Source: Microgenomates group bacterium | Lineage (GTDB): Bacteria > Patescibacteriota > Microgenomatia > Daviesbacterales > UBA10151 | DNA: 64,000 nt | Assembly (NCBI GenBank): GCA_041659805.1 | Contig: JBAZXP010000001.1 | Location: 384,589 to 448,588 of the forward strand | Direction of reading: 5' to 3' | Shown: positions 12,483 through 31,732 of the stretch, in pieces | How positions within the stretch are numbered: position 1 is the first letter of the stretch | Layout: the number at the start of each line of letters is the position of its first letter | Notes under the pieces: generated by a model | Seen by the model: the letters and a program-made list of their open reading frames with translations, nothing else | The model's database searches: none | Told to the model about the DNA's origin: nothing | Position numbers and translations under genes: made by a program

Positions 12483-12486
12483 ATTT

Positions 12487-17057: not shown

Positions 17058-17059
17058 AA

Positions 17060-17384: not shown

Positions 17385-17528
17385 ATGAGTGACTTAAAAG
17401 AAGCAATCAAGCTTAAAGATCCTGAGAAGATAGCAGAAATAATCCTAGCTGGTTTTCAACAGCTTGATGAGGATCTAAAAGAACAAGCAAAGCTTAAGAA
17501 ATCATCAAAGTCAAAAAAGAAAAACTAA
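17385..17528 (+). CDS. small lysine-rich protein (47 aa), divergent from the XRE regulator
   Basis: ATG at 17385, MSDLKEAIKLKDPEK...KSKKKN; below ORF-track cut-off. Confidence 0.3.
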   Translation: MSDLKEAIKLKDPEKIAEIILAGFQQLDEDLKEQAKLKKSSKSKKKN

Positions 17529-19252
17529 AGCTCTATCTCATTCCCAAGAAGATCAGTAATAGTCCTTTTACGTTTTAATTTTCGTGGGTACTTTTCAAAA
17601 AATTCTTTGTTCTCTTCTACTAAATAAATCGTGCAATAACCTGTTCCATCTTCATATTTTAACTCTCTACCTTTCAAAATCCCTTGTCTTTCAAGTTTTC
17701 TAAGTGTGGAAGAATGCAAGCCGCACTCATCAGTTATTTTCCAACCTTGAAGCCAAATATCACTATTCTTTACAGCTTCATAAGGGATATTTCCTTTCTT
17801 TATGTTCATATGGCAATCAAAACAGGTAATCCCATCTAAAGTCCACCATATTTTCTTGCCAGGAGTAGATGATTTACAGATCATACAGGTATATGTTGCA
17901 TCTCCTTCGAGAAGAAATCCCTCTGGTTCATGTTCTAGCCTTTTTTTCCTTGTATTTTCAATTCCTTGCATTTCTCCAGAAAGCCTAACTAACTGAATTA
18001 AATGATAGTTTCCATACTTCATTCTTGCTTCATAGTCTATTTTTGAAGGCTTTTCTTCTTTTTTCTCACCTGTAAGCTCAAAAAAATCTTCCTCTCGTTC
18101 ATATCCTTTCAATCTTCCTGATAAATAACCAAGACGATAGAATACTCCCTCAGTCATCAAACGCCAGTTTGTTCCCTCAAGTCTATCCTTTATAAGTTTT
18201 TGAATCGTGGATACACTAATATTTTCACTGCGTGAAGAATCACTATCTTGAATACTAAAAGGGACAATGACATATTGTCCTATCTCTGGTTTATCAAACG
18301 ACAGCTTAACAAAATGTTCTTTTTCAAGCACCTCATTTAAAAGCTTTTCCAATTCTAAGATAGTAAGTTTTTTCAAACCAGCAACTTTTTGGTAAGCGAA
18401 ACTATCGTATTTTTGTAATTCTTCCTGGTATATTTGCGGGGCAATTTTAAAGGCCTCAATGTACTCAAAACTTTCTTTTCCTTCCTTATCAGAGCAAAAT
18501 TCTTCTCGATATTCCTCCAAAAGCTTTTTATCTTCTTCCTCCTGTTTTTTCCTCTCAGCTCTATGTTTTTCTAAATCATCTTCTGTAGTTTCTGTAAAAC
18601 CACATGATGCACAAGTTGTTTTCCATATAATTTTCTCCTTACTTTCCTTAACAACAGACATATCAATTTCAGCCTTACATTTAGGACATAACTGTGGTTT
18701 TGTTTCATATTCTTTTCCATCTTCATAAATCCATCGTTTCTTTTTACAGTTGGAACAATTAAACAGGAACATCATGTGTAATTGTTTGTCTAATGTATCA
18801 AGGTGTTTAATCGTGACTTTCATTAACTTTTTACAGTCAGGACAGATTATTTCTTGAGGTTCAGGGGTATTATCGTATTTATCTTGTTCTATACTGTCAG
18901 AATCCATCCATTCTTGTATTGCCTCTTCTTTATGACTATATCTTTGGCCTTTTATTTGATAAAGCTCTTGGTTGGTAATCCAACCAAACCATTTTGCCTT
19001 ATCTCCAGCAGAAAACTTTTTAGATTCTTCACTATTCAGGTGTTTTTCATAAGTTTTTGTCCATGACTCAATAGCCTCAAGACATCTTTTAATCGTAAAT
19101 AAGTCATATCGGTCTATATAATGCTGTTTATCTTTAAGGTATTCCATATATCTATCTTTGATTATAATATTCTTCCTCGTTATCTTCATCTGATCCGTCA
19201 AGAAAAGATAAAAATTCATAATCAGAACCGAACTCTTTCCATTTAATTCCAA
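17525..19252 (-). CDS. multi-zinc-ribbon protein with C-terminal MerR/excisionase-like HTH (hypothetical)
   Basis: At least four CxxC...CxxC pairs (CPDC..CSNC, CPKC..CASC, CMIC, CFDC). C-terminal ITDECGLHSSTLRKLERQGILKG HTH. Track start overlaps the upstream XRE gene, so true start is probably MEYLKDK near 19147. Confidence 0.5.
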   Translation of the reverse strand: MELNGKSSVLIMNFYLFLTDQMKITRKNIIIKDRYMEYLKDKQHYIDRYDLFTIKRCLEAIESWTKTYEKHLNSEESKKFSAGDKAKWFGWITNQELYQIKGQRYSHKEEAIQEWMDSDSIEQDKYDNTPEPQEIICPDCKKLMKVTIKHLDTLDKQLHMMFLFNCSNCKKKRWIYEDGKEYETKPQLCPKCKAEIDMSVVKESKEKIIWKTTCASCGFTETTEDDLEKHRAERKKQEEEDKKLLEEYREEFCSDKEGKESFEYIEAFKIAPQIYQEELQKYDSFAYQKVAGLKKLTILELEKLLNEVLEKEHFVKLSFDKPEIGQYVIVPFSIQDSDSSRSENISVSTIQKLIKDRLEGTNWRLMTEGVFYRLGYLSGRLKGYEREEDFFELTGEKKEEKPSKIDYEARMKYGNYHLIQLVRLSGEMQGIENTRKKRLEHEPEGFLLEGDATYTCMICKSSTPGKKIWWTLDGITCFDCHMNIKKGNIPYEAVKNSDIWLQGWKITDECGLHSSTLRKLERQGILKGRELKYEDGTGYCTIYLVEENKEFFEKYPRKLKRKRTITDLLGNEIEL

Positions 19253-19454
19253 GCGACTTTCTAATTTTATCTAATGTACGCATACCAATGCTACCAGTTT
19301 TTCCACGCTCGATTTTACCGTAATAATTGGGATTTAAATCAGCTCCTACAGCAACATCTACCCTTGTTCTCTTCTGTTCTAATCTTATTTGTATTATTCT
19401 TTGGCATAATAATTTTTGCCTTTTGAGTCCCTGTTCAGAAATTCTATGTTTCAT
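19152..19454 (-). CDS. XRE-family HTH transcriptional regulator
   Basis: 100 aa; RIIQIRLEQKRTRVDVAVGADLNPNYYGKIERGKTGSIGMRTLDKIRKSLGI. Confidence 0.65.
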   Translation of the reverse strand: MKHRISEQGLKRQKLLCQRIIQIRLEQKRTRVDVAVGADLNPNYYGKIERGKTGSIGMRTLDKIRKSLGIKWKEFGSDYEFLSFLDGSDEDNEEEYYNQR

Positions 19455-19510
19455 GAAGGGAATTATAAAAGAGTTTTCTAAAAAATGACGTACTTTTATG
19501 AATAGTTACT

Positions 19511-22045
19511 TTGGCTATCTTAAATATAGGAACTTTGCTAGAATTGAACCAGAATATGTCAAAAATACCATTTAGTGTATCAGCTAGAACCGCAAGATTA
19601 ATAGGAAGGGAAAATGTCAGTAATGCAGAAGGTGCAATAATTGAATTAGTTAAGAACGCTTATGATGCTGATGCAAGTACATGTATAGTTTTTTTTAAAA
19701 AGGATTTTAGCGGAATTCCTGAGCAACTATCTATACAAGAATATACTCAAATCTCTACAAAGCAAACTTTTAAGGAAATAAAAGATTGCTACGAAAAAAA
19801 TAATGAGGGATACCAACTTAAAACCCTAATTGGCGATAAAACAGAGGTTTTATCTTCTTTTTTTAATTCGTTGTGTGAAATTTATATCATAGACAATGGG
19901 ACGGGTATGACACGAAATGTGCTTGAAAATCAATGGATGATGATAGGAACAGACAATAAATTGGAGAACTATATATCAAAAAAGAAACGTATACAAACAG
20001 GAGCCAAGGGAATTGGAAGGTTTGCGCTCGATAGGCTTGGATCTTTTTGCGAGGTGCTTACTAAATCTGAAGATTCTTCAGAAGGGTATAAATGGGCTGT
20101 AAATTGGGAGAATTTTGAAAAGAAAAACACAGATATAGGTAAGATTTATGCGGAATTAGAAGTGGTTCAAAAATTTAGTAGCGACTCTTTGTCATTTTTC
20201 AAAAAAACAGAGAATGAAGTAATTATGCCTTTATTGGGAAAATTTGAGCATGGAACCATATTGAGAATTAAATCATTGAGCGATACATGGAATTCTGAAA
20301 GCATCACTAATATTTATCATGTTTTAGAATCATTAACTCCCCCTGGAACATTTCAGGAATTTAAAATGTTTGTTTTTAATTCTGAAGATTTAAATGCTTT
20401 TGGAGAAGTTAAAAACTTTATTAATGATGATTTTGATTACCAAGTTAATGCAACTTTTAATTCTGAAAAACAACTTAATATAAAGATCTCAAGACGTGAG
20501 TTTGATTACAAAAAAATTGATAAAAAGCTTTTCTTACAAAAAGAAATGCAAAAATCTCCTTATACCGAAGAGGATTTTAAAAAAGGCTATTTTTTAATAA
20601 AAATGGATATCCATAAATTATTACCTGGGGGACTAAACGAATATATACTTAATAATTTAGGGCCTTTTGAATTTAATTTCTACTTCATTAAGCGTCAAAC
20701 TACTAACGAAGATAGGGAGGTTTTTTCTTTTAGAGATTTCAACCAAGCGCGAAGAGCAGAATGGTTAGATAGATCAAGTGGAATTAAAATTTTTCGAGAC
20801 AATTTTAGAATTAGGCCCTACGGAGAGCCAAAAGGATCAACATATGATTGGTTGGGATTAGACATGCGGGCTGCTAAAAGCCCTGCTGGATTTGCTCAAA
20901 GAATTGGGCAATGGCATGTTAGATCATACCAAGTGGCCGGTGAAGTTAATATTTCTAGGATAACTAATATCTATTTTGATGATAAATCTAGTAGAGAAGG
21001 TTTACAAGAAAATGCCTACTTTAAAGTATTCAAAAATATTTTAAATGAAATAGTTGCACTTTTTGAAAGAGATCGAGAATACATAGGAATAAACATGAAA
21101 AGTTTTTCCAAGAAAAATAATGAAGAAGAAAAAACCAAAGAGGAAGCTCATGAAATTGCAGAAATGATAACCTCAACGCCCTCATCTCCACAACAGTCAT
21201 TGGATATTGATCCACAAAGTCTAAAGCAACAACTAGAAACTGTTTCTAAAGGATTTAAAATTAAGGAAAAAGAGCAAGAAGAATTATTGACTGAAGCAAA
21301 AATGCTTCGTACGTTAGCTAGTTCAGGTTTATTAGTAGCTACATTTGCTCATGAATTAAGACAGTTAGGAGGAACCTTATCCCGAAGAGTAGATTTACTC
21401 GAGCAATGCCTAGAAGGTGTTATAGATAAGAGTAAATTAGCTTCATTGCCAACCCATTTAGATCCATATAAAAGATTGCAAAGATTAAGAGATGATGACT
21501 TGAAACTTAAGAATTGGATAGACTTATCAGTAAACACATTACAAAGAAATAAAAGGGATCTAATTAAGATAAATCTAACTAAATATTTATCTGAATATAT
21601 CGAATATGTAAATAACATAGTAAAATTCAAAGAAGCACATATAGAATTTAAAAGTACATCTGATGACATAGAAATAAAAGTTTTTCCAATAGATATGGAC
21701 AGTATATTTAATAATTTGCTTGCAAATTCAATTGCAGGATTTCTTCGTAAAGATGCACCTAATGAAAGAAAAATTAGTATAAATATATCGGCTACAACTA
21801 ATAACGTTATCATCGAATATCTCGATAGCGGCCCAGGTTTAGATTCTTCAATTCCTTACCCAGAAAAAATTTATGATTTGTTTTTTACTACTAAAATAAA
21901 TGAGGTAGGAGAAAAAATAGGTACAGGTTTAGGTATGTGGATAGTAAAATCTATTATTGAAGAGTATGAAGGTAGTATAAATATAACAAAAGTACGCCCT
22001 GGATTCGGTATTAAAATGGAAATCCCTAAACATATAAGCAAATAG
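19511..22045 (+). CDS. GHKL-ATPase / sensor histidine kinase fusion protein (N-terminal MORC/HATPase_c_3-like ATPase + C-terminal HisKA H-box and HATPase_c)
   Basis: 844 aa. N-terminal Bergerat motifs ELVKNAYDADAS (N-box), IIDNGTGM (G1), GAKGIGRFALDRLG (G2). C-terminal ATFAHELRQ (H-box), FNNLLANSIAG (N), YLDSGPGLD (G1), GTGLGMWIVKS (G2). TTG start at 19511; alternative ATG at 19556. Confidence 0.7.
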   Translation: MAILNIGTLLELNQNMSKIPFSVSARTARLIGRENVSNAEGAIIELVKNAYDADASTCIVFFKKDFSGIPEQLSIQEYTQISTKQTFKEIKDCYEKNNEGYQLKTLIGDKTEVLSSFFNSLCEIYIIDNGTGMTRNVLENQWMMIGTDNKLENYISKKKRIQTGAKGIGRFALDRLGSFCEVLTKSEDSSEGYKWAVNWENFEKKNTDIGKIYAELEVVQKFSSDSLSFFKKTENEVIMPLLGKFEHGTILRIKSLSDTWNSESITNIYHVLESLTPPGTFQEFKMFVFNSEDLNAFGEVKNFINDDFDYQVNATFNSEKQLNIKISRREFDYKKIDKKLFLQKEMQKSPYTEEDFKKGYFLIKMDIHKLLPGGLNEYILNNLGPFEFNFYFIKRQTTNEDREVFSFRDFNQARRAEWLDRSSGIKIFRDNFRIRPYGEPKGSTYDWLGLDMRAAKSPAGFAQRIGQWHVRSYQVAGEVNISRITNIYFDDKSSREGLQENAYFKVFKNILNEIVALFERDREYIGINMKSFSKKNNEEEKTKEEAHEIAEMITSTPSSPQQSLDIDPQSLKQQLETVSKGFKIKEKEQEELLTEAKMLRTLASSGLLVATFAHELRQLGGTLSRRVDLLEQCLEGVIDKSKLASLPTHLDPYKRLQRLRDDDLKLKNWIDLSVNTLQRNKRDLIKINLTKYLSEYIEYVNNIVKFKEAHIEFKSTSDDIEIKVFPIDMDSIFNNLLANSIAGFLRKDAPNERKISINISATTNNVIIEYLDSGPGLDSSIPYPEKIYDLFFTTKINEVGEKIGTGLGMWIVKSIIEEYEGSINITKVRPGFGIKMEIPKHISK

Positions 22046-22047
22046 AT

Positions 22048-22683
22048 ATGAGTAATTATAATATTGCCTTTATAGATGACGATCAGGGTGTTATAGACGA
22101 TTTCCTTGTTACTGCTGGGAATAAATCGGTAGATGTTCAAACCTTTGAATTATCTCCTGATAAAGAAAGTTTGGTTGATGAAATCGCAAAATCTAATGTT
22201 GATGCGATAGTCATTGATTTTCATCTTGCCGATACTCGACCAAATATCAAATATGATGGCGCAGAGGTAATGAATCAATTGGAAGAGGTGACTTACAATA
22301 TCCCAAAGTTTATTTTTACTGCTTTTTCGTCTGCAGCTGAAGATAAAAGTAATGATATTAATATAGTTTATGAAAAAGAAGGAGATTTTGGGCCATTTAT
22401 TGATAAAGTAATAAAACAAATCGATAAATACAAACATCGATTGGAAGAGTATCAAGAGGAATTGATGAGTTTAATAGAGAAGAGTAAAACTACCAAATTA
22501 AATGTAGAAGAGGAAGAGCGCGCTTTAGAATTAGATAATATTATCGAGAAGTCTTTGAACAAAAGACTTTCCTTACCTGATAGCCTCAAAAAACCTTCAA
22601 CTATTTCAACGCTCGACAAACTTCTTTCAGAGGCAGAACAAATAGTAAAGGAGTTACAAAATCGTAACAATGCAAAATCTTAG
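22048..22683 (+). CDS. stand-alone response-regulator receiver (REC) domain protein with C-terminal coiled-coil
   Basis: 211 aa; acidic pair FIDDDQ, phospho-acceptor-like Asp in AIVIDFHLAD, T in FIFTAFS, conserved K near 109. Start 3 nt after upstream stop. Confidence 0.6.
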   Translation: MSNYNIAFIDDDQGVIDDFLVTAGNKSVDVQTFELSPDKESLVDEIAKSNVDAIVIDFHLADTRPNIKYDGAEVMNQLEEVTYNIPKFIFTAFSSAAEDKSNDINIVYEKEGDFGPFIDKVIKQIDKYKHRLEEYQEELMSLIEKSKTTKLNVEEEERALELDNIIEKSLNKRLSLPDSLKKPSTISTLDKLLSEAEQIVKELQNRNNAKS

Positions 22684-23260
22684 ATCTAAAATACCACAAC
22701 GAACTTGCACGAGAGAATACACAGATTACACTTCCTATAAAAGCTACTTAAAATCTGATTTTGACAGTAGGTGTGGTTATTGTGATGACCATGATCAATA
22801 TTATGGTGGTTCTGACTCATATCATATTGATCATTTCGCACCTAAAAAATTTGCGGATTTAATCTCTAAGTACAGCAATCTTGTATATTCGTGCCCATTT
22901 TGTAACAAGGCTAAGCGCAATAAATGGCCTTCAGATGATCAGAATGTGAATGTTGTAGGTGATGAAGGATTTATTGACCCCTGTAGTGAGAACTATGATA
23001 TTCATTTGAACCGTGATGAAAATGGTAGCATAATCTCTGTTACCCCAATTGGTGGTTATATGCATAAGCATTTAGAATTAAATTTGAATAGACATGCCAT
23101 AATCTGGAAATTAGATAGAATTAATGAAGCAATAACTAAAATTCAAGTACTGAGAGATAGCGATTCAGAACTAGGTGAAGATTTATCAAATAGACTAAAC
23201 CAACTATTGGCAGACTATAGAGAATATGACCAAAGATTAAAAGACACATATAACAAGTAA
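22670..23260 (+). CDS. HNH endonuclease
   Basis: 196 aa; CGYCDD...HIDHFAPKK...NLVYSCPFCNKAK = CxxC-HxxH-N-CxxCN beta-beta-alpha-Me motif. 14 nt overlap with REC gene; C-terminal helical tail. Confidence 0.75.
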   Translation: MQNLRSKIPQRTCTREYTDYTSYKSYLKSDFDSRCGYCDDHDQYYGGSDSYHIDHFAPKKFADLISKYSNLVYSCPFCNKAKRNKWPSDDQNVNVVGDEGFIDPCSENYDIHLNRDENGSIISVTPIGGYMHKHLELNLNRHAIIWKLDRINEAITKIQVLRDSDSELGEDLSNRLNQLLADYREYDQRLKDTYNK

Positions 23261-23383
23261 TATTTTCAAGTAAAAAGACTGCAGACTTTGTAGGAAAATT
23301 ATAGTATGATTAAAAAGTGCTGCCTAGTTTTATATTAAAAACCTGATTAATTAAAAGGGGTAAATGAGACTGCAGAGTTATTA

Positions 23384-24667
23384 ATGAAAAAAAATACTAC
23401 TCTTCTCAAAAAGGGTTGGGATGATAAAGTAGGATACTTTCCTACACCAGCTAATATTGTAGCGCAGTTTACTTGTCTTACTACTGATTTTATAAAACCA
23501 TATTTGCCTTCCCAAATTGATGTGTTAGATTTATTTGCTGGAGATGGAAGATTAGGCATAGAACTATCAAAATCTCTATACAATAATAACTATAAACCTC
23601 ATACAACTTTTGTTGAGATTCAGCAGGAAGAGATAGAGAAAATCAAAGCTAATACTAAAAATACTAAGGTTTTTAAACGCAATATATTTAAATGGTCAAC
23701 AAAAAAGAGGTTTGATTTAGTAATTTCTAATCCCCCATATTTAATACTAAATTCGCCTGATGCAGGAAAGCTTGGATTCAATTGGGAATATGCTAAAAAA
23801 CATGGAAGAAATTTATATACATTAGGAATTATCAAAGCTTTAGCTTTATGTAGAGAAGGAGGAATTGTCGCCGTAATCTCTCCATTTAGTTGGTTAAGAG
23901 GAGAATACAGTAAAGAATTTAGAGAGATAATAAATCAAAATTGTTCAAGAGTATTAATAAAGGCAAACGATCATAGAACAGTATTTAAAGGTGTTAATCA
24001 AGATATTGGTTTCCAATTTTTTATTAAAAGATACAGACATGAGACATCACTAACAAAATGGCAATTTGGGTATAATGGTAATAATCCTGAAGAGATTCTT
24101 TTTGAGAACTTAGAAAGAAAGAATAGCTATTATCAATTAAGCTCTAGAGTAATGGTTGGTACTATCGTATGGAATAGAAATAAAGAATATCTTACTTCAC
24201 AAAAACATAATAGTACCCTAGTAGTTTATGGTGGTAATATAGGCCATGATGGAAAACTTAATTGTAATATTTCAAAATATAAAGATAAACAATATATTCA
24301 AAACAAAGTTTTATCAAAAACAGATGTATTTGAATCTCCTCTAATATTAATACGGAGAATTATGAGAGGAATACCAGGCAACTGGATGATTGATTCCTGC
24401 TTAATCGAAAAACCCTTTAAGTGTGTTGTTGAAAATCATGTGATTGTTATTGAAATACCAAAGGGGAAAGTAGCCTCGTATAGAAGATTTTATGAAAACA
24501 TAATGGATAGAATAAAAGAATATTATTATTTCTCTGGAAGCCCATCAATAAGCGGAAGGGTTGTAAAACAAATAATAATGGATCTAGAGCTTTCTTTGAT
24601 TAAAGAAAAGGATGCGTCAAATTATCTTCCAACCAGTCAAGAAAACATACATCTATTATTTGATTAA
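23384..24667 (+). CDS. N6-adenine DNA methyltransferase (gamma-class, FxGxG...NPPY)
   Basis: 427 aa; GYFPTPANIV (motif X), DLFAGDGRLG (motif I), DLVISNPPY (motif IV); C-terminal ~200 aa putative TRD. Confidence 0.75.
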   Translation: MKKNTTLLKKGWDDKVGYFPTPANIVAQFTCLTTDFIKPYLPSQIDVLDLFAGDGRLGIELSKSLYNNNYKPHTTFVEIQQEEIEKIKANTKNTKVFKRNIFKWSTKKRFDLVISNPPYLILNSPDAGKLGFNWEYAKKHGRNLYTLGIIKALALCREGGIVAVISPFSWLRGEYSKEFREIINQNCSRVLIKANDHRTVFKGVNQDIGFQFFIKRYRHETSLTKWQFGYNGNNPEEILFENLERKNSYYQLSSRVMVGTIVWNRNKEYLTSQKHNSTLVVYGGNIGHDGKLNCNISKYKDKQYIQNKVLSKTDVFESPLILIRRIMRGIPGNWMIDSCLIEKPFKCVVENHVIVIEIPKGKVASYRRFYENIMDRIKEYYYFSGSPSISGRVVKQIIMDLELSLIKEKDASNYLPTSQENIHLLFD

Positions 24668-25240
24668 TAACTCACCCTTCTTCGACAGGTCGCTATTTGC
24701 AAATATTTTTAAATAGTCAAAGTTTTTTAGTTCATTATTCAATTCCTTAAGGGAAATGCTTCTTTCAGTTCCTAACATTTCCCATATCATCATGATTGTT
24801 TGTTCCCAATCATTACCAAGTTGACCAAGAATAAATCGTAGTACAAACTCTGATATTTCTTCAGCTGTACCTTCAAAGCTAATTTTTCTTTCTCCTAATT
24901 GATCAATAAAGTTAGACACAATTCTATCCTCTTCATAAGTAACCCAATCTGGTGTATCTTTACCAATATTTGTAGGAGGATATTTATCATTTAATACCGA
25001 AGTATCGATAGTTGAATTAAGCTTAATTTGTTCTATAGTATCTTCAAGAAGTTTTCTCCAGTCATGAAGTGCTTTTTGAGATCTAATCATAGTAGTTAAA
25101 AATTGATTTCTATCCCCTGATGTTCCAATTATTTTGGGATAATTTTTTGTCTTAGCTATTTCTTTTATTAACGCAAAAGTATCTTTATCCCATTGATCAA
25201 AAAGAGGATATCGATATTTAGGAGGGTTATTTATAGCCAT
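24656..25240 (-). CDS. hypothetical protein (last gene of 4-gene minus-strand operon)
   Basis: 194 aa, no motif recognised. Confidence 0.4.
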   Translation of the reverse strand: MAINNPPKYRYPLFDQWDKDTFALIKEIAKTKNYPKIIGTSGDRNQFLTTMIRSQKALHDWRKLLEDTIEQIKLNSTIDTSVLNDKYPPTNIGKDTPDWVTYEEDRIVSNFIDQLGERKISFEGTAEEISEFVLRFILGQLGNDWEQTIMMIWEMLGTERSISLKELNNELKNFDYLKIFANSDLSKKGELLIK

Positions 25241-25243
25241 AGT

Positions 25244-26011
25244 TTATTTAATAATTAAATCTCTAATAAAATTAACAAACTCAGCTGTTTTAGAGTAGGT
25301 TTCTTTACCGTCAATCTTTTTATTTTCTCTATTTTTATACCATTCTAAAGCTTCTTTAATTAAGGATGACCATTGAGGAAGTTGTTCTATAGTCCACTGA
25401 GCAGCTTGTTTTTTAGACACTTGTTCACCATTTTTGACCGCATAGTATGCTCTACATAGAGTAAGAATCGCATAGCCCTGGGCTCCTTTAGTATGCATAT
25501 CTTTTACCCATTCACTCCAAGAGGAAGTATGTGACTTTACTGCTTCAATAAATTCTTCTTTTGAGATTGGTTCAATTATTATTTTTGGATCAGCACCAAA
25601 TAGCGTTACACCATTTTCTCGAACTATGTACCAATTCATTAACCAATGCTTTCCAACTACTCTTTTATGAAATGGTTCACCTGGACTAATGACAGCAATT
25701 TCACTCTCTTCTGTTTTGAAGGTTTTTAGAGCAGATTTTGGCATATACTGAACTTCGATTCTGTCGTTCCATTCTGTATGTTCATTTGCAAAATCTTGAT
25801 GCATTTTTTCTAAAGCCTTAAATTCTTCATCTGTTAAATCAGATTCCAAAGCAGCTACTAAATCTATATCACTAATATTCTGATCAAAATCACCAGTAAC
25901 AAGAGAACCATATAGGTATAAACCAATTAGCTTTCCTCCTAAAACACTTTGAATTTTAGAAAGAATAATCTGGAGTAAATTATTAATATCCGGATATTGT
26001 GTAGGACTCAT
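25244..26011 (-). CDS. nucleotidyltransferase, AadA/ANT(3'')-like (Pol-beta NTase + C-terminal helical domain)
   Basis: 255 aa; LIGLYLYGSLVTGDFDQNISDIDLVAAL strongly resembles the aminoglycoside adenylyltransferase GS...SDIDL core. Confidence 0.6.
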   Translation of the reverse strand: MSPTQYPDINNLLQIILSKIQSVLGGKLIGLYLYGSLVTGDFDQNISDIDLVAALESDLTDEEFKALEKMHQDFANEHTEWNDRIEVQYMPKSALKTFKTEESEIAVISPGEPFHKRVVGKHWLMNWYIVRENGVTLFGADPKIIIEPISKEEFIEAVKSHTSSWSEWVKDMHTKGAQGYAILTLCRAYYAVKNGEQVSKKQAAQWTIEQLPQWSSLIKEALEWYKNRENKKIDGKETYSKTAEFVNFIRDLIIK

Positions 26012-26595
26012 ACTAACTCCAACACTCTAGTAAGAAGCGTATCCAAGGGCGAAGCTTTGATAGCTGTGTATCCACTTCTTTCTGCCTGTTTCTTAATTTC
26101 CTGTCCATAGGTATAAGTAAATTCTGAATATTTTTTAGCTTTTTCTGGATCAGGAGTGTTACCTCTGTTTCTTTGAATATCTCTTTGGTAAAGTTCCTCT
26201 TTATCATCATATAAAAAGACTGCTTTAATACTTTCTTGAGATCGGGTTGCTAATAACTGTGGAATAATACTATCTCCTTCAAAAATAACTGGCTCGTCAC
26301 AGACTATATGTTTATTTATCAAGTCATCTAACGCTGGCCATAATTCTTTTCCAACATCTAATAACTTTTGGCTCCAATATTCAGGAGTATTTTGTTCTAT
26401 AAAATTAGGATCAGCATCAAGAAAGGTAAAAAGATCAGGATGATCTTCTTTTTTGACCATTTTTTGTAAAGCAATTCGAATATCATCGACCTCTGTTAGA
26501 GGCACTTCAAACTGCTTTGCAAGTTGTCTTGCAAGATGGGATTTTCCAGTAGCACCAGAACCACCAATTAATAATATTTTCCATTCAGTTTTCAT
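26008..26595 (-). CDS. P-loop kinase (AAA_33-like)
   Basis: 195 aa; Walker A ILLIGGSGATGKSHLARQLA; ATGA overlap with downstream NTase. Confidence 0.6.
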   Translation of the reverse strand: MKTEWKILLIGGSGATGKSHLARQLAKQFEVPLTEVDDIRIALQKMVKKEDHPDLFTFLDADPNFIEQNTPEYWSQKLLDVGKELWPALDDLINKHIVCDEPVIFEGDSIIPQLLATRSQESIKAVFLYDDKEELYQRDIQRNRGNTPDPEKAKKYSEFTYTYGQEIKKQAERSGYTAIKASPLDTLLTRVLELV

Positions 26596-26619
26596 ATTTT
26601 TAGTATAGCAGAGGAGACA

Positions 26620-27132
26620 TTATTTCATCTCACTGGCGAGAACGTAATCTTCATTTTCAGTAGGAGGTTCCCAATTCTTTAAGTAATTGTCTAACATTTC
26701 TCTACTAATCTTAAAGGAGTCTTTCCCGAGATTATTGTTTCTTCCCATAACCCTCTCTCGTATCGCTTCGATTGGTGTATCAAGATAGTACATCACCAAT
26801 TTAGCACCAATTGCCTCTGTCCTTCTTCTCATTTCATCTCGTGTTTCTTTTTCCCAAAATCCCTCATCCATGATGACATCAATACCTTTCTCTGCGAGAT
26901 AAAATGCAACATCCCTTGATAAATCAATGATTTTACGATCCCACTGGGCATATCCTTCAATTGTAGGATCGTTTCCAATTAAACGAATTGACCATTCATC
27001 CTTCACGATTCTCACTGCACCAGTTTTTTCTTCTAGCTTCTTTGCAAAAGTAGTTTTACCAGCACCGATAAATCCACAAATTATATAAACGATAGGTTTT
27101 CTTTTCATAAAGGTATTGTACCAAAGATTCAT
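26620..27132 (-). CDS. P-loop kinase (AAA_33 / zeta-toxin-like fold)
   Basis: 170 aa; Walker A ICGFIGAGKTTFAKKL; start may be MKRKP at 27108. Confidence 0.6.
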   Translation of the reverse strand: MNLWYNTFMKRKPIVYIICGFIGAGKTTFAKKLEEKTGAVRIVKDEWSIRLIGNDPTIEGYAQWDRKIIDLSRDVAFYLAEKGIDVIMDEGFWEKETRDEMRRRTEAIGAKLVMYYLDTPIEAIRERVMGRNNNLGKDSFKISREMLDNYLKNWEPPTENEDYVLASEMK

Positions 27133-27364
27133 ATTTATTTTCCTTCTGAAAGTCGCTATTTTTAATATTTTATTCCTCTCTCTGTAAAATTTCTTTTCTC
27201 ATATAAAGGGGTTGCACCCCTCATTTTGCAAGGGTATATAAACGAGGTCGTTGCCTCGCCCTTGCAAAACTCACCCCGCTTAGCTTGCAGCATGTATCGG
27301 TAGCAGGCAGGCTGCTACCAGAAAAAATATTTTCTAGGAAAGGCCAGGAAGGAGGTGAAAATAT

Positions 27365-27772
27365 ATGAGTGCATTTTTAGTAGAGGATATAACAATTAAT
27401 AGAGTTGTTAACTGGATGATTCTGGAATTACCAAATAACTACTATCTTGCAGAAGAGTTAAAAAAGATGGGTTACACTGAAGGAGATCCGGAAAAATTGG
27501 CAAAAGATATGTTTCAGTTAAATATCGCATCTTTGAAGCAAAGATATGGCTCAGCAGAAGGATTTAGGGATTTCGATTTTACCTATAAGCTCACATATCC
27601 AGTGACCAAAATCCAAGTATTAAAATCCTTACAATGTTGGTTATATCAATGCTGCGAGGGTAATGTAGTAAGAAAAAAGTTTTATCGGCTCTTTGATGAA
27701 GTCGTAAAAGTTTGCTTAATGAAGAGCATAATTTATGACCTTCCAGAATACGACGAAGCCCGATGGGGTTAG
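27365..27772 (+). CDS. hypothetical protein
   Basis: 135 aa; GGAGGTGA SD 6 nt upstream. Confidence 0.4.
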   Translation: MSAFLVEDITINRVVNWMILELPNNYYLAEELKKMGYTEGDPEKLAKDMFQLNIASLKQRYGSAEGFRDFDFTYKLTYPVTKIQVLKSLQCWLYQCCEGNVVRKKFYRLFDEVVKVCLMKSIIYDLPEYDEARWG

Positions 27773-27779
27773 TTCAATA

Positions 27780-27817
27780 AACCTACCGTTTGTTGAAAAA
27801 CAGGCGGTAGGTTTTAC
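27780..27817. terminator. bidirectional intrinsic terminator between convergent genes
   Basis: ACCTACCGtttgttgaaaaacaggCGGTAGGTTTT; T-run on plus, A-run (T-run on minus) on the other side. Confidence 0.6.
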
Positions 27818-28620
27818 TCTGCCTCTTCCCAAATATCTGTGGTTACTCCTTGTTTCCTTACTTCATCTTCTAAAGCAAAACTAATATGTATATCTTCTAA
27901 ATCCTCATCGGCTAGTAATCTTTTAGTCATTCTCTTTGTGGAAATAAGTAACTCTTTTGTTTGGCAAATAAAAAGAATCCGTGGAGCTGATTTAAAATGT
28001 TCCATCCATTCATAATTTAATAAAAACGAAATATAATCTTTGACTCTTTTTAGGATCTGATACTTGGGAAGAGTTGTATTAAGTATCTCTAATAAATGAT
28101 AAGTTTTGGTTGTTTTCTTCTGCTTGGTAAATATGAGTTGAGTAGTAAGTTCACAAAGAAAATTATATGGAGAATCTGGACTTATATAGTCACTTGTCGT
28201 TACAAAATCATAGGATACACCATTCTTGCTTTGGTTCTTTAGATTAAGACACATATCGGCCAAGAATTGGCAATCTGCTATAAAAGCTTCTGACCTATTT
28301 TTCTCCTGGTAGATTTTTTGTAGTAGCTTTTTATCAAACCCCTCTTGGGCTTTTAGAAAATTGATACCATTTAGACTTAGGTAATAGATAGCGGGTATAG
28401 TATTTTTTCCAAATGTTTCACCATCGTAAATTCTTTTAAGATAGTCTTTTTGTGTTAGGTCTTTGAGCCAGAGGTTAATTGTTTTTTTGTCTTTATGATT
28501 GAGGAGTTTTTGGATTTGAATTCTATTGATGAATCTAAATTGATAGGTAAGTTTTATTGTTTCTTGTTGTTTGTTAGTTATTTTAGGTAGTGTCATTATT
28601 GTATATATTGCCAACCCCAC
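27814..28620 (-). CDS. replication-relaxation family protein (Replic_Relax, wHTH N-terminus)
   Basis: 268 aa; N-terminal LPKITNKQQETIKLTYQFRFINRIQIQKLL resembles the Replic_Relax wHTH; adjacent to coupling ATPase. Start probably MTLPK at ~28596. Confidence 0.55.
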   Translation of the reverse strand: MGLAIYTIMTLPKITNKQQETIKLTYQFRFINRIQIQKLLNHKDKKTINLWLKDLTQKDYLKRIYDGETFGKNTIPAIYYLSLNGINFLKAQEGFDKKLLQKIYQEKNRSEAFIADCQFLADMCLNLKNQSKNGVSYDFVTTSDYISPDSPYNFLCELTTQLIFTKQKKTTKTYHLLEILNTTLPKYQILKRVKDYISFLLNYEWMEHFKSAPRILFICQTKELLISTKRMTKRLLADEDLEDIHISFALEDEVRKQGVTTDIWEEAE

Positions 28621-28708
28621 CTACTCCGATATTTATAAAGGTAGGAGCAATAATAATTTAGAATTTAGGCTCAAAATGCAATATTTTTTGCCCTCGCTCT
28701 TGAGGGTA

Positions 28709-31588
28709 TTATATACCATGTGATTTAGCAGTTTTCTTAGCTGGCTTTTCTTTAGTTTCTCCTCCAAAAAGCTGCTTTAGCGTTTCTTCCACTTCAGCTT
28801 TTGGAGTACCATACTTTTTCCTCGTATTGGTAATAATTTCCTCTGCTGTTTTCTCACTGCCTTTAACATCTAGAGGTATTGTTTGTCCTGAAAATGCATC
28901 CTCACTATTGTCCGTTGAAACTTTCATATAGAAATGAAATGGTGGCAAGTTAACAATCTCGCCTTTTTCAACTTCTGGCTGCATAAAAGGTAAGATAAAC
29001 TGTTCGTCGTCTGGACTACCCTTTAAAGAAATAATTGTTCCAGCATTTCCAGCAATTATCTGAACCAATTTCAGGTCATCAATTTGAGCAATATTTTGAT
29101 GTGAAGGAATTAAAGAGATATGGAATTTTCTTCCTTCGCTCATAATCTCTGAAAACTGAGGAGTAGCAAAGTTTTGAAATTCATCAATATAGAGAAAGAA
29201 ATCACGTCTTTGTTTTTCTGGTATCTTTGTTCTTTGATAAGCTGCCATCCAAATGAGTGAAGTCACAAGAGTACCAAAGAAAGAACTTTGATCTTCTCCT
29301 AAATCACCTTTTGAAAGATTAATTAATAATATCTTTCCTTCATCCATAATCTGCTGGATACTGATAGTACTTTTTCCTTGTAACAAAATATGCCTGGACA
29401 TTTTGGTGGTAATAAAATGTCCTAACCGATGAGTTAACGGTGCAGTAACAGAAGATAATTGCATAGTTCCTAAAAGAGAAAATTCTTTTTGCCAAAACTG
29501 TTTTAAGACTGGGTCAGAAAGAGTTGAGGCAACTTGTTTCTGATATTTCTTTTCTGTTAATAACCGTTGCAAGGTAAAAAGGCTTGGGTTAGGGGTTTGT
29601 AATGCTGTAAGAATTGCATTTTGTAGAATATGCTCCATTCTTGGGCCCCAATATTCTTTTGCAGTTAATTTAGCAAATATTGCTATAACAGAACTCGTGA
29701 TCCATTCGTCTGCATCCTCTTTACTACTAAATGTAATGCCAGGAGACAAAATATTAAGTCCGAGAGGAAAGTCCCTGTCTGATGGATCAAAGTAAATAAC
29801 ATCTTTCCTTCGCTCTTTAGGTATAACTTGCAGAAGCTCTTTTACCATATCTCCATGTGGGTCAAGCACACAAAGACCTTTACCACTTGCCATATCCTGA
29901 TAGATAGCGTTTGTTAAAAGGGTTGTCTTACCCATACCAGTTTTACCAATAACATACATATGCTTTTGTCTTTGCGCCAAAGTTAAGCCAATCGGGCTTA
30001 CTTCTCCACCATACTCATTTGCACCGAGAATCACATCAAGGTTAGTGGTGCTTTTTTTCATAGATAAAGGAGATGGTAATTCTCGTGTTCTACTTTTTAC
30101 TAATCCTTCTGTCTTGGTAAGATCAGTGTAGGGGAAGTGGTAAATATCCGATATTTCGGACACGGAAAGAATTGGGTTTTGGTTAAATATAAAACTATTA
30201 GATAGTAACCTTCTTTTAAATTGATTTAGTCGTAGGTTCATAGTTAGTGATCTAGGAAGCAAACTACTCTTTGTAGTAATTAATTGATACGTGCTGTTCA
30301 TAGCGCCAAAAGAGGCAATTAGGCCGGATACTCTACTATCAAACTCTTCAGGTTCCTTTGTAATAACAAGCATCCTTATAGATGTTTCAAATAACGGTTG
30401 ATCTATTTTTTCTTTTACGATCTGTAATAACTCTTGTTCATAAGGGTTTAATAATTGCTGGTTAGCGGCTGCATTTTCTATTGCCTTTGAAGTCATTAAA
30501 AAAGGGATCACTTTGCTATTTGGATCCATAAAAGCTAAAAGCATGCTATATACAAACATCCATACAAACTTAACAACCGAAAATATTACTTTAAGGAAAA
30601 ATGTGATAACAAATACACCTGGTAAATCTGCAATCTTTTGCAAGATGTTTCCATTTAAGAGAGGAGTAAGTGGTTGTCTTTGATATATTATTTTTCTTAA
30701 CTCATTCATTTTATTAATTAGAGTTTTGTGAGTACCATTTAGAACTGGCGTAGTTATGATTTGAAATGAGATTAATTCATGATCGTTGAGTTTGGTCATA
30801 TTGCCAGTTAAATAAGAGATTGGATCATGTTCATCAAGCGTTTTTTGCCTAGAAAGTGGTAATGCAAAAGGTGCAGCAAGTTTAAACTCTACAACACCTT
30901 GGAACATTTCTCCTTCTGAATCTTCATTTAAATAATCATCTATTTCTTTAGTCTTTATTCCAGGCAAATAAGACAAAAGATTTCTTCTGATTGTATTAGC
31001 GTTTCTAGAAGAGGTAGAAAGAATATATCTGATGCCTTGGTCTTTAGTGGAAACAATTTCAAGACCAAAGATATTTTTTTGTCCTAATAATCGTTCTTTG
31101 AAATTATTTTGTTTGGCAAGTGTATGTAACAAGGTATAAAGCTGCTGGGTTGCGTAGGCTGATTTACTTGTATCTGAAGGGAAAGTTAATTCAAAAAAGG
31201 TTTTTGGTTGTACTGGTAAAAATCTTGCAAATATTAAAGGGAATATTACTTGTAAGAACGATATCGAAGCCTTTATAAGAAAATACAATAGCAGTAGGCT
31301 TAAAATAAGCCATAAAGGCCAAAACATAACAAAGATACTAGATAATAAGGGATGAGCATTAACAGAGTCACTTAGAGGAGAACTTGAGGCAGTAAGGGCA
31401 TAGTACATATCTAATCTTGATTGAACAGGAAACCATGATTCTGGTAAAGGAAATTTAAGAAGGACTAGCAGAACAATATCATTAAAAATAGGCATTTGGC
31501 CGTTCTGCACTTGATGAAGTAATTGTAACTGCTGAATTTCAGTTGCTGTTTTAGGAATAAATGATGGTATAGGACTACTCGTTTCCAT
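28709..31588 (-). CDS. TraG/TraD/VirD4-family type IV coupling protein-like ATPase (membrane-anchored)
   Basis: 959 aa; N-terminal TM helices; Walker A VIGKTGMGKTTLL followed by CVLDPHGD; Walker B-like LYIDEFQNF. Confidence 0.65.
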   Translation of the reverse strand: METSSPIPSFIPKTATEIQQLQLLHQVQNGQMPIFNDIVLLVLLKFPLPESWFPVQSRLDMYYALTASSSPLSDSVNAHPLLSSIFVMFWPLWLILSLLLLYFLIKASISFLQVIFPLIFARFLPVQPKTFFELTFPSDTSKSAYATQQLYTLLHTLAKQNNFKERLLGQKNIFGLEIVSTKDQGIRYILSTSSRNANTIRRNLLSYLPGIKTKEIDDYLNEDSEGEMFQGVVEFKLAAPFALPLSRQKTLDEHDPISYLTGNMTKLNDHELISFQIITTPVLNGTHKTLINKMNELRKIIYQRQPLTPLLNGNILQKIADLPGVFVITFFLKVIFSVVKFVWMFVYSMLLAFMDPNSKVIPFLMTSKAIENAAANQQLLNPYEQELLQIVKEKIDQPLFETSIRMLVITKEPEEFDSRVSGLIASFGAMNSTYQLITTKSSLLPRSLTMNLRLNQFKRRLLSNSFIFNQNPILSVSEISDIYHFPYTDLTKTEGLVKSRTRELPSPLSMKKSTTNLDVILGANEYGGEVSPIGLTLAQRQKHMYVIGKTGMGKTTLLTNAIYQDMASGKGLCVLDPHGDMVKELLQVIPKERRKDVIYFDPSDRDFPLGLNILSPGITFSSKEDADEWITSSVIAIFAKLTAKEYWGPRMEHILQNAILTALQTPNPSLFTLQRLLTEKKYQKQVASTLSDPVLKQFWQKEFSLLGTMQLSSVTAPLTHRLGHFITTKMSRHILLQGKSTISIQQIMDEGKILLINLSKGDLGEDQSSFFGTLVTSLIWMAAYQRTKIPEKQRRDFFLYIDEFQNFATPQFSEIMSEGRKFHISLIPSHQNIAQIDDLKLVQIIAGNAGTIISLKGSPDDEQFILPFMQPEVEKGEIVNLPPFHFYMKVSTDNSEDAFSGQTIPLDVKGSEKTAEEIITNTRKKYGTPKAEVEETLKQLFGGETKEKPAKKTAKSHGI

Positions 31589-31732
31589 AATATTTAGAGT
31601 ATAACTTTTGAGCAGTCTTCAGGACAAGTATATCATAAAGTTAGGCTCAGAACACCCTTTTTACCTCTTGACAACTGTAAATATATTTATATATACTGTA
31701 AATATAATTACAGTTGAGAATAAAAATTAAGT

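Follow-up and report, generated by a model that had tools for sequence, protein, structure and literature searches.

A cargo cluster of predicted P-loop kinases and an AadA-like nucleotidyltransferase on an integrative mobilizable element of a Microgenomates bacterium

Within the window analysed here (a 64,000-nt stretch of contig JBAZXP010000001.1 from an uncultured Microgenomates group bacterium), four co-directional minus-strand ORFs at 24656-27132 make up a cluster that is neither a recognised resistance cassette nor a recognised defence system, and whose products are probably small-molecule-modifying enzymes. Our preferred explanation, to which we give about an even chance, is that the cargo represents a pool of reshuffled, autonomous, 'resistance-like' enzymes that modify small molecules and travel on an integrative mobilizable element. 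The original prediction had placed four genes at these positions, and all four ORFs were found there.

26620-27132, minus strand: kinase 1, a stand-alone AAA_33 P-loop kinase (170 aa ORF)
26008-26595, minus strand: kinase 2, a divergent P-loop kinase (195 aa ORF)
25244-26011, minus strand: NTase, a nucleotidyltransferase with a Pol-beta fold and an AadA_C (DUF4111) helical domain (255 aa ORF)
24656-25240, minus strand: 194-aa protein of a CPR-restricted family (194 aa ORF)

The expected overlapping or abutting of these genes was confirmed, with an ATGA overlap of 4 nt (and a GGAG 7 nt upstream) coupling kinase 2 to the NTase, a gap of 24 nt between the two kinases (a junction read from the sequence), and just 3 nt between the NTase stop and the start of the 194-aa ORF. 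This last ORF also overlaps a convergent methyltransferase gene by 12 nt. Probably, the cluster is co-transcribed as a compact cargo operon.

Carriage on a mobile element, as had been proposed, was likewise confirmed, and the element could be delimited to about 17.5 kb (16077-33581), with the cluster inside and exact 16-bp repeats at both ends. Its other features are as follows.

16077-16092, plus strand: attL core, second copy of the 16-bp repeat, left end of the element (exact repeat)
27133-27364, unstranded: intergenic region rich in hairpins, upstream of kinase 1 (core about 27207-27319)
27365-27772, plus strand: orf135, a backbone gene divergent from the cluster (96% identical in sister locus L083)
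27814-28620, minus strand: Replic_Relax (relaxase-like) protein (Pfam PF13814, 29.3 bits against a cutoff of 25.3)
28709-31588, minus strand: type IV coupling protein (T4CP) of 959 aa (TrwB_AAD_bind, TraG-D_C)
32059-33675, plus strand: large serine recombinase (Resolvase, Recombinase and Zn_ribbon_recom)
33565-33637, minus strand: tRNA-Gln(CTG), the integration target (ARAGORN; Rfam RF00005, 56.3 bits)
33566-33581, plus strand: attR core, the 16-bp direct repeat GCTGCGGGACTTGGAT at the 3' end of tRNA-Gln (exact repeat)

None of 100 shuffles yielded two matches to the 16-bp repeat, even with 2 mismatches allowed, and the sequences flanking attL and attR are unrelated. In this Microgenomates (CPR) bacterium, the integrative mobilizable element occupies the 3' end of tRNA-Gln. 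As in other such elements, the 17.5 kb contain no mating-pore genes, and insertion at a tRNA gene 3' end comes with a short direct repeat, although integration here relies on a large serine recombinase, with an ORF that crosses attR and extends over tRNA-Gln. Moreover, the relaxase-like gene adjoins the T4CP gene, as in the relaxase and T4CP loci that are rare in Patescibacteria (PMC12102498). The T4CP is 72% identical in L083 and 57% identical in the Saccharibacteria locus L075, and Replic_Relax homologs adjoin kinase-2 cargo in L082, L083, and L084-86. For orf135, there was no family match in Pfam or NCBIfam. Also on this element, beside the cluster, is a defence-like block comprising a GHKL ATPase, a REC-like protein, a PtuB-like HNH nuclease, and an Eco57I-type methyltransferase.

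The NTase matches Pfam NTP_transf_2 (27.9 bits) and AadA_C (80.9 bits, cutoff 22.2), and so the C-terminal DUF4111 domain that the original prediction had singled out for checking is indeed present. Both domains, together with a length of ~255-263 aa, are shared with the AadA enzymes ANT(3'')(9) and ANT(9) (PDB 4CS6, 5G4A, 7UY4, 6SXJ), as are the Mg2+ site of the G-S...D-x-D motif (with which LYLYGSLVTGDFDQNISDIDL aligns), the catalytic Glu, the C-terminal ATP-phosphate-binding Arg/Lys, and the W173-equivalent Trp. Residue roles were taken from PMC6065190 and mapped across 22 family members. Here, the equivalents of S36, S46, D47, D49, R192, K205, and W173 are kept in 22/22 and that of E87 in 21/22, with W112, where the alignment is gappy, kept in 20/22. 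In contrast, the acceptor-binding positions are replaced, with D182 being A/G/S in 20/22, E183 being Q in 21/22, H/N185 being Y in 21/22, and D178 also substituted, while an insertion of 12 aa and a deletion of 19 aa reshape the central segment. The Mg/ATP/catalytic residue set is therefore intact, whereas the published drug-recognition residues are replaced. In that earlier work, D182 and H/N185 were proposed as determinants of spectinomycin activity, streptomycin activity needs these two plus Trp-173 and a 177-178 insertion, and a C. jejuni protein with the same NTP_transf_2 and AadA_C architecture confers no resistance (PMC6065190). Judged by its sequence, the NTase falls in the class that 'may perform a different function' (PMC6065190).

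Profile scores point the same way, in that the curated NCBIfam ANT models gave 53-78 bits against cutoffs of 193-400, i.e., 3-8 fold under, with the best at 77.8 versus 193. Alignment with the solved AadA structures is limited to the N-terminal motif and the C-terminal domain, and no plasmid-borne aadA genes were retrieved with the NTase by tblastn at E<=1e-5. The description of this protein as strikingly close to ANT(3'')/ANT(9) thus holds for the motif and architecture but not for overall similarity. Its pI (5.49) compares with 4.6-5.3 in true ANTs, overall charge not being discriminating, and its family numbers >1600 proteins of 43-73% identity across phyla. A genuine streptomycin/spectinomycin cassette, with the NTase as a functional ANT(3'')(9) or ANT(9) and the kinases as accessories, would fit the AadA architecture and the conserved catalytic, ATP-binding, and tryptophan positions, as well as the ANT(6)-like and APH(6)-like sister cassettes, which belong to two further families of streptomycin-modifying enzymes. 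Streptomycin tolerance has also been mentioned for the Saccharibacteria phylotype TM7x (PMC8651080). Nevertheless, the replaced acceptor positions, the rearranged central segment, the C. jejuni precedent, the low model scores, and the tblastn result together make such a cassette very unlikely. What stands of the proposed antibiotic-modifying cassette is its status as cargo, the AadA architecture, and the resistance-like company (ANT(6)-like, APH(6)-like, GNAT, methyltransferase, and ABC exporter/MerR), but not streptomycin/spectinomycin resistance.

Both kinases had been called AAA_33-type, which is borne out for kinase 1 (82.8 bits over its full length, cutoff 27) but not for kinase 2 (19.8 bits, under threshold). 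Kinase 1 also matches Zeta_toxin (38.4 bits, cutoff 22.3) and shows a weak full-length likeness to APS kinase, adenylate kinase, and PSTK. Its relatives include 649 representatives at E<=1e-10 and 18 at E<=1e-30, with the sister-element homologs being 83% (L083) and 78% (L082) identical. Since most relatives align only from query residue 9-15, and the L082 homolog has 162 aa, the true start, as read from these alignments, is probably M9 (27108). In a sample of 10 fusions, the kinase-1-like domain was joined to GNAT (2/10), GrpB (1/10), a second AAA_33 (3/10), and once each to DJ-1, SnoaL, and SKI.

For kinase 2, every P-loop profile match in Pfam and NCBIfam was sub-threshold, and some of its 49 homologs are called '2-phosphoglycerate kinase' by JGI. 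Its AlphaFold model (pLDDT 93.6) returned adenylate, UMP/CMP, gluconate, shikimate, and dephospho-CoA kinases in Foldseek (TM 0.45-0.62). The family invariants (G11 G12 G17 K18, D37 D38 R40, E106 G107 D108, and R142) retain the Walker A, a candidate substrate-binding Asp, and lid Arg residues. From the model, kinase 2 appears to have a generic NMP-kinase-like fold and to belong to a small family outside Pfam coverage. Nor are two side-by-side kinases as unusual as was first thought, as two or three AAA_33 genes occur per sister element and tandem AAA_33-AAA_33 fusions are known.

A further possibility is nucleotide or nucleic-acid metabolism in a reduced-genome symbiont, either as nucleoside/nucleotide salvage kinases or in RNA repair, by a polynucleotide kinase together with a 3'-end NTase. 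Profiles for polynucleotide kinase, thymidylate kinase, PSTK, and KTI12 give weak matches to kinase 1, kinase 2 is structurally NMP-kinase-like in its model, an AAA_33::methyltransferase fusion in a sister locus recalls, by analogy, the Pnkp/Hen1 repair pair, and CPR are described as unable to make nucleotides in a preprint (bioRxiv 10.64898/2026.07.13.738296). However, we consider this role unlikely, given that the matches amount to generic P-loop similarity at low scores, none of the 10 sampled fusion relatives of kinase 1 carries a phosphatase or ligase domain, and AadA_C is otherwise known solely from small-molecule ANTs (PMC6065190). Moreover, the cluster occupies a variable accessory region rather than the conserved chromosomal context that would go with housekeeping-type matches.

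The 194-aa protein has no match in Pfam, NCBIfam, PADLOC, PHROG, or PDB sequences, and its named homologs (121 homologs in all) come exclusively from CPR or 'Woesearchaeota' MAGs. Because these relatives have ~181 aa, we regard the final ~13 aa of the ORF, which are unconserved, as a low-confidence extension. Structure prediction gave a confident model (pLDDT 86, pTM 0.84) of four helix-strand-helix units, but Foldseek found no structural match for it (best E 0.93 in PDB and 0.46 in BFVD). In L200, the arrangement of NTase, 3 nt, and 194-aa homolog is repeated. This recurring pair, along with the mobile location, would suit a toxin-antitoxin system in which the toxin is the zeta-like kinase, the NTase, or both, neutralised by a small neighbour (e.g., the 194-aa protein), thereby stabilising the element. 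Kinase 1 does exceed the Zeta_toxin cutoff, a weak resemblance to MntA and PDC-S09 NTase domains is seen at the N-terminus of the NTase, and sister loci contain Fic genes, with a DUF433/PIN pair beside related genes. Zeta toxins, though, have ~270-290 aa against 162-170 aa for kinase 1, which fits AAA_33 much better, and upstream of it lies a 232-nt non-coding region with no epsilon-like gene. In addition, the NTase has AadA_C and no MenT/AbiEii or MNT-HEPN arrangement, and all four families are mostly solitary genes without a fixed partner, so that we find this reading quite improbable. An anti-phage defence or nucleotide-signalling module built on a kinase and NTase pair, the other option in the original prediction, seems extremely improbable. 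Despite the adjoining defence-like block, PADLOC gave only two weak generic PDC-S09 NTase-domain matches for the NTase (best 30.4 bits) and zero for kinase 1, kinase 2, and the 194-aa protein; there were no informative PHROG matches. The NTase is of the AadA rather than the CD-NTase type, and has neither an effector-like partner nor a conserved system architecture.

The reading of the cargo as a reshuffled enzyme pool draws on the sister elements, and earlier work had reported 'aad'-like matches to be frequent in Microgenomates (PMC8651080). Upstream of kinase 1, the hairpin region (RNA MFE -77 kcal/mol, z = -5.46; no Rfam match) has a core shared with L083 at 93% identity, where one stem change is compensatory, and in L012 a 55-nt part is 98% identical while the proteins are at just 50-55%. 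In all copies, similarity ends directly past the hairpin GGGGTGCAACCCC. This region thus marks the junction of conserved backbone and variable cargo, and is a candidate oriT, or an operator or leader. L083 has the arrangement seen in the window plus an additional two-gene insertion (AAA_33 and 131 aa) directly after the hairpin core. L082 has the order methyltransferase, ANT(6)-like, kinase 2, GNAT, and AAA_33; its kinase 1 is inverted, and its homology blocks match the ORFs in extent. L012 carries APH(6)-like, methyltransferase, kinase 2, and NTase genes, L200 the NTase and 194-aa homolog without kinases, and L197/198 an NTase, a small NTase, the AAA_33::methyltransferase fusion, and a hydrolase, while in L075 an NTase homolog adjoins a T4CP of the window type. 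Neighbour families show no conservation over either set of 80 loci, the best reaching 9/80 around the NTase and 10/80 around kinase 2, where an NTase was nearby in 1/80. Each cluster junction does recur once elsewhere (L083, L012, and L200). Kinase 2 is also translationally coupled to NTases with two distinct folds, and together these observations hint at a closer functional link than the term 'autonomous enzymes' suggests.

Gene clusters of modifying enzymes on mobile elements are familiar from aadE-sat4-aphA-3 in Gram-positive cocci and strA-strB of Tn5393. These have a similarly tight, co-directional NTase, acetyltransferase, and kinase cargo, which L082 mirrors (ANT(6)-like, kinase, GNAT, kinase). 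In contrast, the window kinases are of the P-loop type (AAA_33/NMP-kinase fold), not APH enzymes, which have a protein-kinase-like fold; aminoglycoside kinases are not usually P-loop enzymes. Against a resistance-like reading, moreover, the scores with curated resistance models, including those of the sister cassettes, are all far below cutoff, and zeta-like kinase, GNAT, Fic, and NTase families also supply toxin-antitoxin toxins. Eighteen plasmid records (16 from Legionella, 2 from Deinococcus) carry an NTase homolog, among them the conjugative Legionella plasmid pLPP (NC_006365.1), whose array (ABC ATPase-ABC exporter-NTase-GrpB::GNAT-GNAT-DUF1653-AAA_28-MerR) couples an NTase of the same subfamily (44% identity) tightly to GNATs and a ~190-aa P-loop protein. 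However, this P-loop protein (AAA_28) is an ortholog of neither kinase 1 nor kinase 2, the array lacks the 194-aa family, and both the host phylum and the carrier (a plasmid) differ.

If the preferred reading is correct, each product would most likely act as an autonomous group-transfer enzyme on small molecules, with kinases 1 and 2 as predicted ATP-dependent P-loop kinases, the NTase as a Mg2+/ATP-dependent adenylyltransferase of AadA architecture that is predicted to be catalytically competent, with an acceptor pocket presumably unlike the streptomycin/spectinomycin-binding one, and the 194-aa protein as its putative CPR-specific partner. P-loop kinases, NTases of two folds, GNATs, and methyltransferases would then be swapped gene by gene beside a conserved hairpin-rich backbone site, and the likeliest gain would be the covalent inactivation of antibiotic-like or toxic metabolites, possibly aminocyclitol-like, that an epibiotic cell may meet.

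As the original prediction had it, the cluster comprises four minus-strand open reading frames (ORFs), with an ATGA overlap joining kinase 2 to the AadA-like nucleotidyltransferase (NTase):

26620-27132, minus strand: kinase 1, 170 aa
26008-26595, minus strand: kinase 2, 195 aa
25244-26011, minus strand: NTase, 255 aa
24656-25240, minus strand: 194-aa protein

Read from the sequence, the kinase 1/kinase 2 gap is 24 nt, the ATGA overlap of 4 nt has a GGAG upstream, and the NTase and the 194-aa ORF are 3 nt apart. The 3′ end of the latter overlaps a convergent methyltransferase gene by 12 nt. Database entries of 100% identity exist for all three cluster proteins searched, and a second, independent assembly of the locus comes from SRR18595301.

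Kinship of the NTase with ANT(3″)/ANT(9) enzymes, as originally proposed, is borne out in its architecture and not in its scores. The DUF4111 C-terminal domain, for which a check had been suggested, is present (PF13427, AadA_C/DUF4111; 80.9 bits versus a cutoff of 22.2) behind an N-terminal PF01909 domain (NTP_transf_2; 27.9 bits versus 21). Every curated cutoff of the NCBIfam/AMRFinder models is nonetheless missed, the best score being for PRK13746 (77.8 versus 193), followed by ANT_9 (71.3 versus 340), ANT_3pp_I (58.5 versus 375), and ANT_3pp_II (53.7 versus 400), and none of the lincosamide-NTase models matched at E<=0.01. Solved AadA/ANT(9) structures align to the NTase only in the G-S...D-x-D N-terminal segment and the C-terminal helical domain; relative to AadA, 12 aa are inserted and 19 aa deleted within the central segment.

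Here, we aligned 22 family members with full-length AadA1, S. enterica AadA, and E. faecalis ANT(9) taken from PDB alignments, using S. enterica AadA numbering and the experimentally defined residue roles of PMC6065190. The Mg2+/ATP set (S36, S46, D47, D49, R192, and K205) is kept in 22/22 members, and the catalytic base E87 is E in 21 and D in one; the window NTase equivalents of S36, S46, D47, D49, E87, R192, and K205 are S36, S47, D48, D50, E86, R187, and K200. In contrast, D182 and H/N185, the proposed determinants of spectinomycin activity (PMC6065190), are replaced by A177 (A in 9, G in 6, S in 5, D in 1, and F in 1 of the family) and Y180 (21 Y, 1 F), and E183 by Q in 21/22 members. Streptomycin activity needs both of these determinants plus Trp-173 and a 177-178 insertion with Asp-178 (PMC6065190). 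The W173 equivalent (W165) is invariant across the family, D178 aligns to H173 (H/K/R/Q/Y in the family) in a loop with a 3-residue indel and uncertain register, and the W112 equivalent (W123) falls in a gappy alignment region. With the catalytic set kept and the drug determinants replaced, these residues indicate that the NTase is very probably an active adenylyltransferase, yet not a recognisable streptomycin/spectinomycin enzyme. Canonical streptomycin/spectinomycin resistance is thus very improbable, the defining residues being absent, and annotation of the NTase as an aminoglycoside resistance enzyme is not warranted. PMC6065190 counts 122 proteins of this architecture that lack these residues and "may perform a different function"; a C. 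jejuni protein of this kind confers no resistance. The pI or overall charge does not discriminate as a sign of aminoglycoside binding. The NTase family is large (>1600 matches, 43-73% identity), occurring in Chloroflexota, Paenibacillus, CPR, Acidobacteriota, and Gammaproteobacteria MAGs. Its plasmid homologs, annotated "nucleotidyltransferase domain-containing protein", are confined to Legionella and Deinococcus (18 records), and the plasmid search with the NTase at E<=1e-5 retrieved zero aadA genes.

Kinase 1 matches AAA_33 over profile positions 2-143 of 143 (82.8 bits versus a cutoff of 27), has the Walker A motif GFIGAGKTT, and is weakly similar to APS kinase, adenylate kinase, PSTK, and phage polynucleotide/thymidylate kinases. 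Its representative relatives, of which an exhaustive search found 649 at E<=1e-10 and 18 at E<=1e-30, are mostly stand-alone, 155-170 aa long, with alignments beginning at query residue 9-15, and M9 is therefore its likely start. A promoter and terminator consensus scan was not enriched versus shuffles; the best promoter-like site lies within the annotated kinase 1 5′ end, which fits the M9 start and proves nothing. Kinase 1 also matches the Zeta_toxin profile above cutoff, though much more weakly (38.4 bits) than AAA_33, and so shares a profile match with the toxins of epsilon/zeta and PezAT, in which the kinase typically has ~270-290 aa and a UNAG-binding C-terminal part. However, at 162-170 aa it is too small, 232 nt of non-coding DNA stand upstream in place of an antitoxin-like epsilon/PezA gene, and fixed partners are absent, making a toxin-antitoxin role distinctly unlikely. 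Ten relatives are fused proteins, partnered with a GNAT (2), GrpB (1), a second AAA_33 (3), DJ-1, SnoaL, or SKI, and a phosphatase or ligase domain occurs in 0 of the 10. These partners disfavour nucleotide salvage or RNA repair, which we regard as unlikely.

For kinase 2, P-loop profile matches are only sub-threshold (AAA_33, 19.8 bits versus 27), and its family is small (49 matches); Walker A, the DD-x-R and EGD motifs, and lid arginines are invariant in it. The predicted fold (pLDDT 93.6) is NMP-kinase-like: at TM 0.45-0.62 it resembles adenylate, UMP/CMP, gluconate, shikimate, and dephospho-CoA kinases, none of which stands out as a specific best match, and a profile search of the PDB gave P-loop-level matches only. 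In the PDB sequence search, the top matches were spurious, namely designed helical repeats on the low-complexity C-terminal helix. The JGI name for its relatives, 2-phosphoglycerate kinase/mevalonate-3-phosphate 5-kinase, is rejected for kinase 2 by the NCBIfam equivalogs (33.1 versus 343 and 27.0 versus 250, respectively).

The 194-aa protein has no match in Pfam, NCBIfam, PADLOC, PHROGs, or PDB sequences, and its family consists of ~181-aa proteins in Woesebacteria, Roizmanbacteria, and other CPR. Structure prediction, as had been suggested for this partner, gave a confident model (pLDDT 86, pTM 0.84) of four helix-strand-helix units, for which Foldseek found no match in the PDB (best E 0.93, TM 0.22) and none in BFVD. 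Its halves are weakly similar (E 0.015), with the invariant G39 and G124 at equivalent positions, and fit an internal duplication of a helix-strand-helix-helix-strand-helix unit. Elsewhere, the family neighbours GNATs, a PNPOx-like gene, or Lon.

The four genes are not a conserved system. Among 80 genome loci with an NTase homolog, kinase 1 or the 194-aa protein was never adjacent to it, a kinase-2-like gene was adjacent in two (L012 and L002), and the commonest neighbour family was found in 9/80; among 80 metagenome loci carrying a homolog of kinase 2, one had an NTase nearby and the best neighbour family reached 10/80. Neither sample contained a conserved neighbourhood. Close relatives instead display gene-by-gene reshuffling inside one element lineage, as seen in the following related loci (the hairpin core is structured non-coding DNA upstream of kinase 1):

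L083: as the window, plus two extra genes directly after the hairpin core; T4CP 72%, orf135 96%, kinase 1 83%, and kinase 2 83% identical
L082: Replic_Relax, followed by MTase-ANT(6)-like-kinase 2-GNAT-AAA_33, whose stops and starts overlap; kinase 1 inverted
L012: APH(6)-like, MTase, kinase 2 (50%), NTase (55%)
L200: NTase (72%), 3 nt, 194-aa homolog (73%); without the kinases
L197/198: NTase, small NTase, AAA_33::MTase fusion, hydrolase
L075 (Saccharibacteria): NTase beside the same T4CP type
Plasmid pLPP (L201; Legionella pneumophila Paris, NC_006365.1 62005-70271): ABC ATPase-ABC exporter-NTase-GrpB::GNAT-GNAT-DUF1653-AAA_28-MerR

In L082, nucleotide homology blocks coincide with the ORFs. 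Every cluster junction is found once more elsewhere, and kinase 2 shows translational coupling to two kinds of NTase with unrelated folds, AadA-like (window and L012) and ANT(6)-like (L082). Carried by conjugative Legionella plasmids (16 records), the pLPP array is tightly coupled, contains a triple-GNAT protein, and resembles an operon for drug modification and efflux; orthology of its P-loop protein to kinase 1 or 2 was rejected. Kinase-1-like AAA_33 fusions to methyltransferase, GNAT, GrpB, or AAA_33 were observed in L197/L198 (2189-3334) and in the homologous proteins P0310, P0316, P0333, P0351, P0357, and P0386; these partners also occur as neighbouring genes, which suggests a functional guild. 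Contigs binned as 'Candidatus Woesearchaeota archaeon' (L012, CAYRCZ010000013.1; P0226) bear the pairing of kinase 2 with an NTase, the hairpin core, and a 194-aa family member, features otherwise typical of CPR bacteria, and reflect either mis-binning or gene/element sharing between CPR and DPANN.

Elsewhere, these genes are found with GNATs, with an exporter accompanied by a MerR regulator, and with three different streptomycin-modifying families, each of which scores below the curated cutoffs. Such neighbours typify drug or xenobiotic modification and favour modifying-enzyme cargo. The best-fitting reading, to which we give roughly an even chance, is a pool of group-transfer enzymes, each autonomous and acting on small molecules, that would co-travel as accessory cargo. 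From the original interpretation, mobile-element cargo in modification-type gene company has thus stood, and the NTase as a recognised ANT and the defence alternative have not. For anti-phage defence, scarcely probable at all, there is no positive evidence: PADLOC-DB 2.0 gave only PDC-S09 matches to the NTase N-terminal domain (30.4 and 19.4 bits) and none for kinase 1, kinase 2, or the 194-aa protein. The recurring junctions and the coupling of kinase 2 to two NTase folds are not explained by independent enzymes and leave a residual signal. Conceivably, though this is a long shot, kinase 2 and the NTase would form a two-step system in which an acceptor is adenylylated and the AMP adduct then phosphorylated (e.g. 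at the ribose 3′-OH), yielding a 3′-phospho-adenylylated compound, by analogy with APS kinase and dephospho-CoA kinase, which phosphorylate after an adenylyl-transfer step. This would explain the coupling of kinase 2 to NTases of two folds, the fusion of kinase-1-like domains to NTase-fold GrpB domains, and the small P-loop proteins beside the NTase subfamily on Legionella plasmids. In such a system, the orphan-fold 194-aa protein might act as the NTase's specificity or carrier subunit.

The cluster, then, is uncharacterised yet recognisable as modifying-enzyme cargo on an integrative mobilizable element, whose limits are set at a tRNA gene:

33565-33637, antisense to the serine recombinase ORF: tRNA-Gln (ARAGORN and Rfam)
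33566-33581 and 16077-16092: 16-bp att repeats, GCTGCGGGACTTGGAT, the 3′-terminal 16 nt of tRNA-Gln and its exact copy

The repeats came only from a targeted k-mer search from the tRNA, a generic finder (seed 12, minimum length 18) being unconvincing. As they are exact, have unrelated flanks, and no window shuffle yields two matches, they delimit a ~17.5-kb element at the tRNA 3′ end. Within it, the cluster adjoins orf135 and the genes for a Replic_Relax protein, a T4CP of 959 aa, and a large serine recombinase. Given a recombinase, a relaxase-like gene, and a T4CP between tRNA direct repeats, the sequence predicts an integrative mobilizable element, and mobilizable since mating-pore genes occur neither in the element nor in the rest of the window, which has no VirB4-like gene. 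It may use a chromosomal T4SS for transfer, which Patescibacteria commonly carry (PMC12102498). The serine recombinase ORF (32059-33675) extends through attR and the entire antisense tRNA, which puts its final ~36 codons beyond the element; excision would alter them. Right of the element are housekeeping genes, pentose-phosphate enzymes and then a copper ATPase; this 744-aa ORF (42373-44607), considered as VirB4, is a copper P-type ATPase with cupredoxin, DsbD, and pentose-phosphate genes as neighbours. Left of it are two adjacent NUDIX hydrolase genes, then a very AT-rich stretch (GC 0.258) coding for a PMT_2-type glycosyltransferase, at 12027-12996 and 13001-14000. The other element cargo is a defence-like block at 19511-24667:

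844-aa GHKL ATPase with HATPase_c_3 and HATPase_c domains
211-aa REC-like protein
196-aa HNH nuclease, PtuB-like (Septu PtuB models, 63.8 bits)
Eco57I-type methyltransferase, lacking an evident nuclease partner

Upstream of kinase 1, a 232-nt region (27133-27364) is strongly structured (z = -5.46), GC-rich, and multi-hairpin. Its ~113-nt hairpin core (about 27207-27319) is 93% identical in L083 (3174-3289), with one compensatory stem change. In L012 (5822-5876), it is 98% identical over 55 nt against only 50-55% for the proteins, so that it is conserved much more strongly than the genes flanking it. Similarity in each of the three copies stops directly after the third hairpin, at the cargo start. 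A riboswitch or known RNA in the kinase-1 leader is without an Rfam match, there being none at E<=1 in 24000-28800 except a chance-level sRNA elsewhere. A palindromic pattern scan of IMG/VR gave 24 matches, about chance level, and 0 share the hairpin core by BLAST. Lying ~450 nt from the relaxase-like gene, the core is a candidate oriT or recombination hotspot, beside which cassettes may exchange.

These results guard against over-called resistance, as pipelines and in-silico CPR 'resistome' surveys would call the NTase an aminoglycoside adenylyltransferase, when it lacks the residues defining aminoglycoside activity and belongs to a large cross-phylum mobile subfamily. Moreover, they provide a cleanly delimited Microgenomates integrative element, with att sites, a recombinase, a T4CP, a relaxase-like gene, and a conserved backbone/cargo hairpin site, which is useful because relaxase-bearing elements are reported to be rare in Patescibacteria (PMC12102498). 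They also define a guild in which small P-loop kinases, Pol-beta NTases, GNATs, and methyltransferases recur, reshuffled gene by gene, and which, together with the element and a CPR-specific family of confident, unmatched fold, offers concrete targets for biochemical screening.
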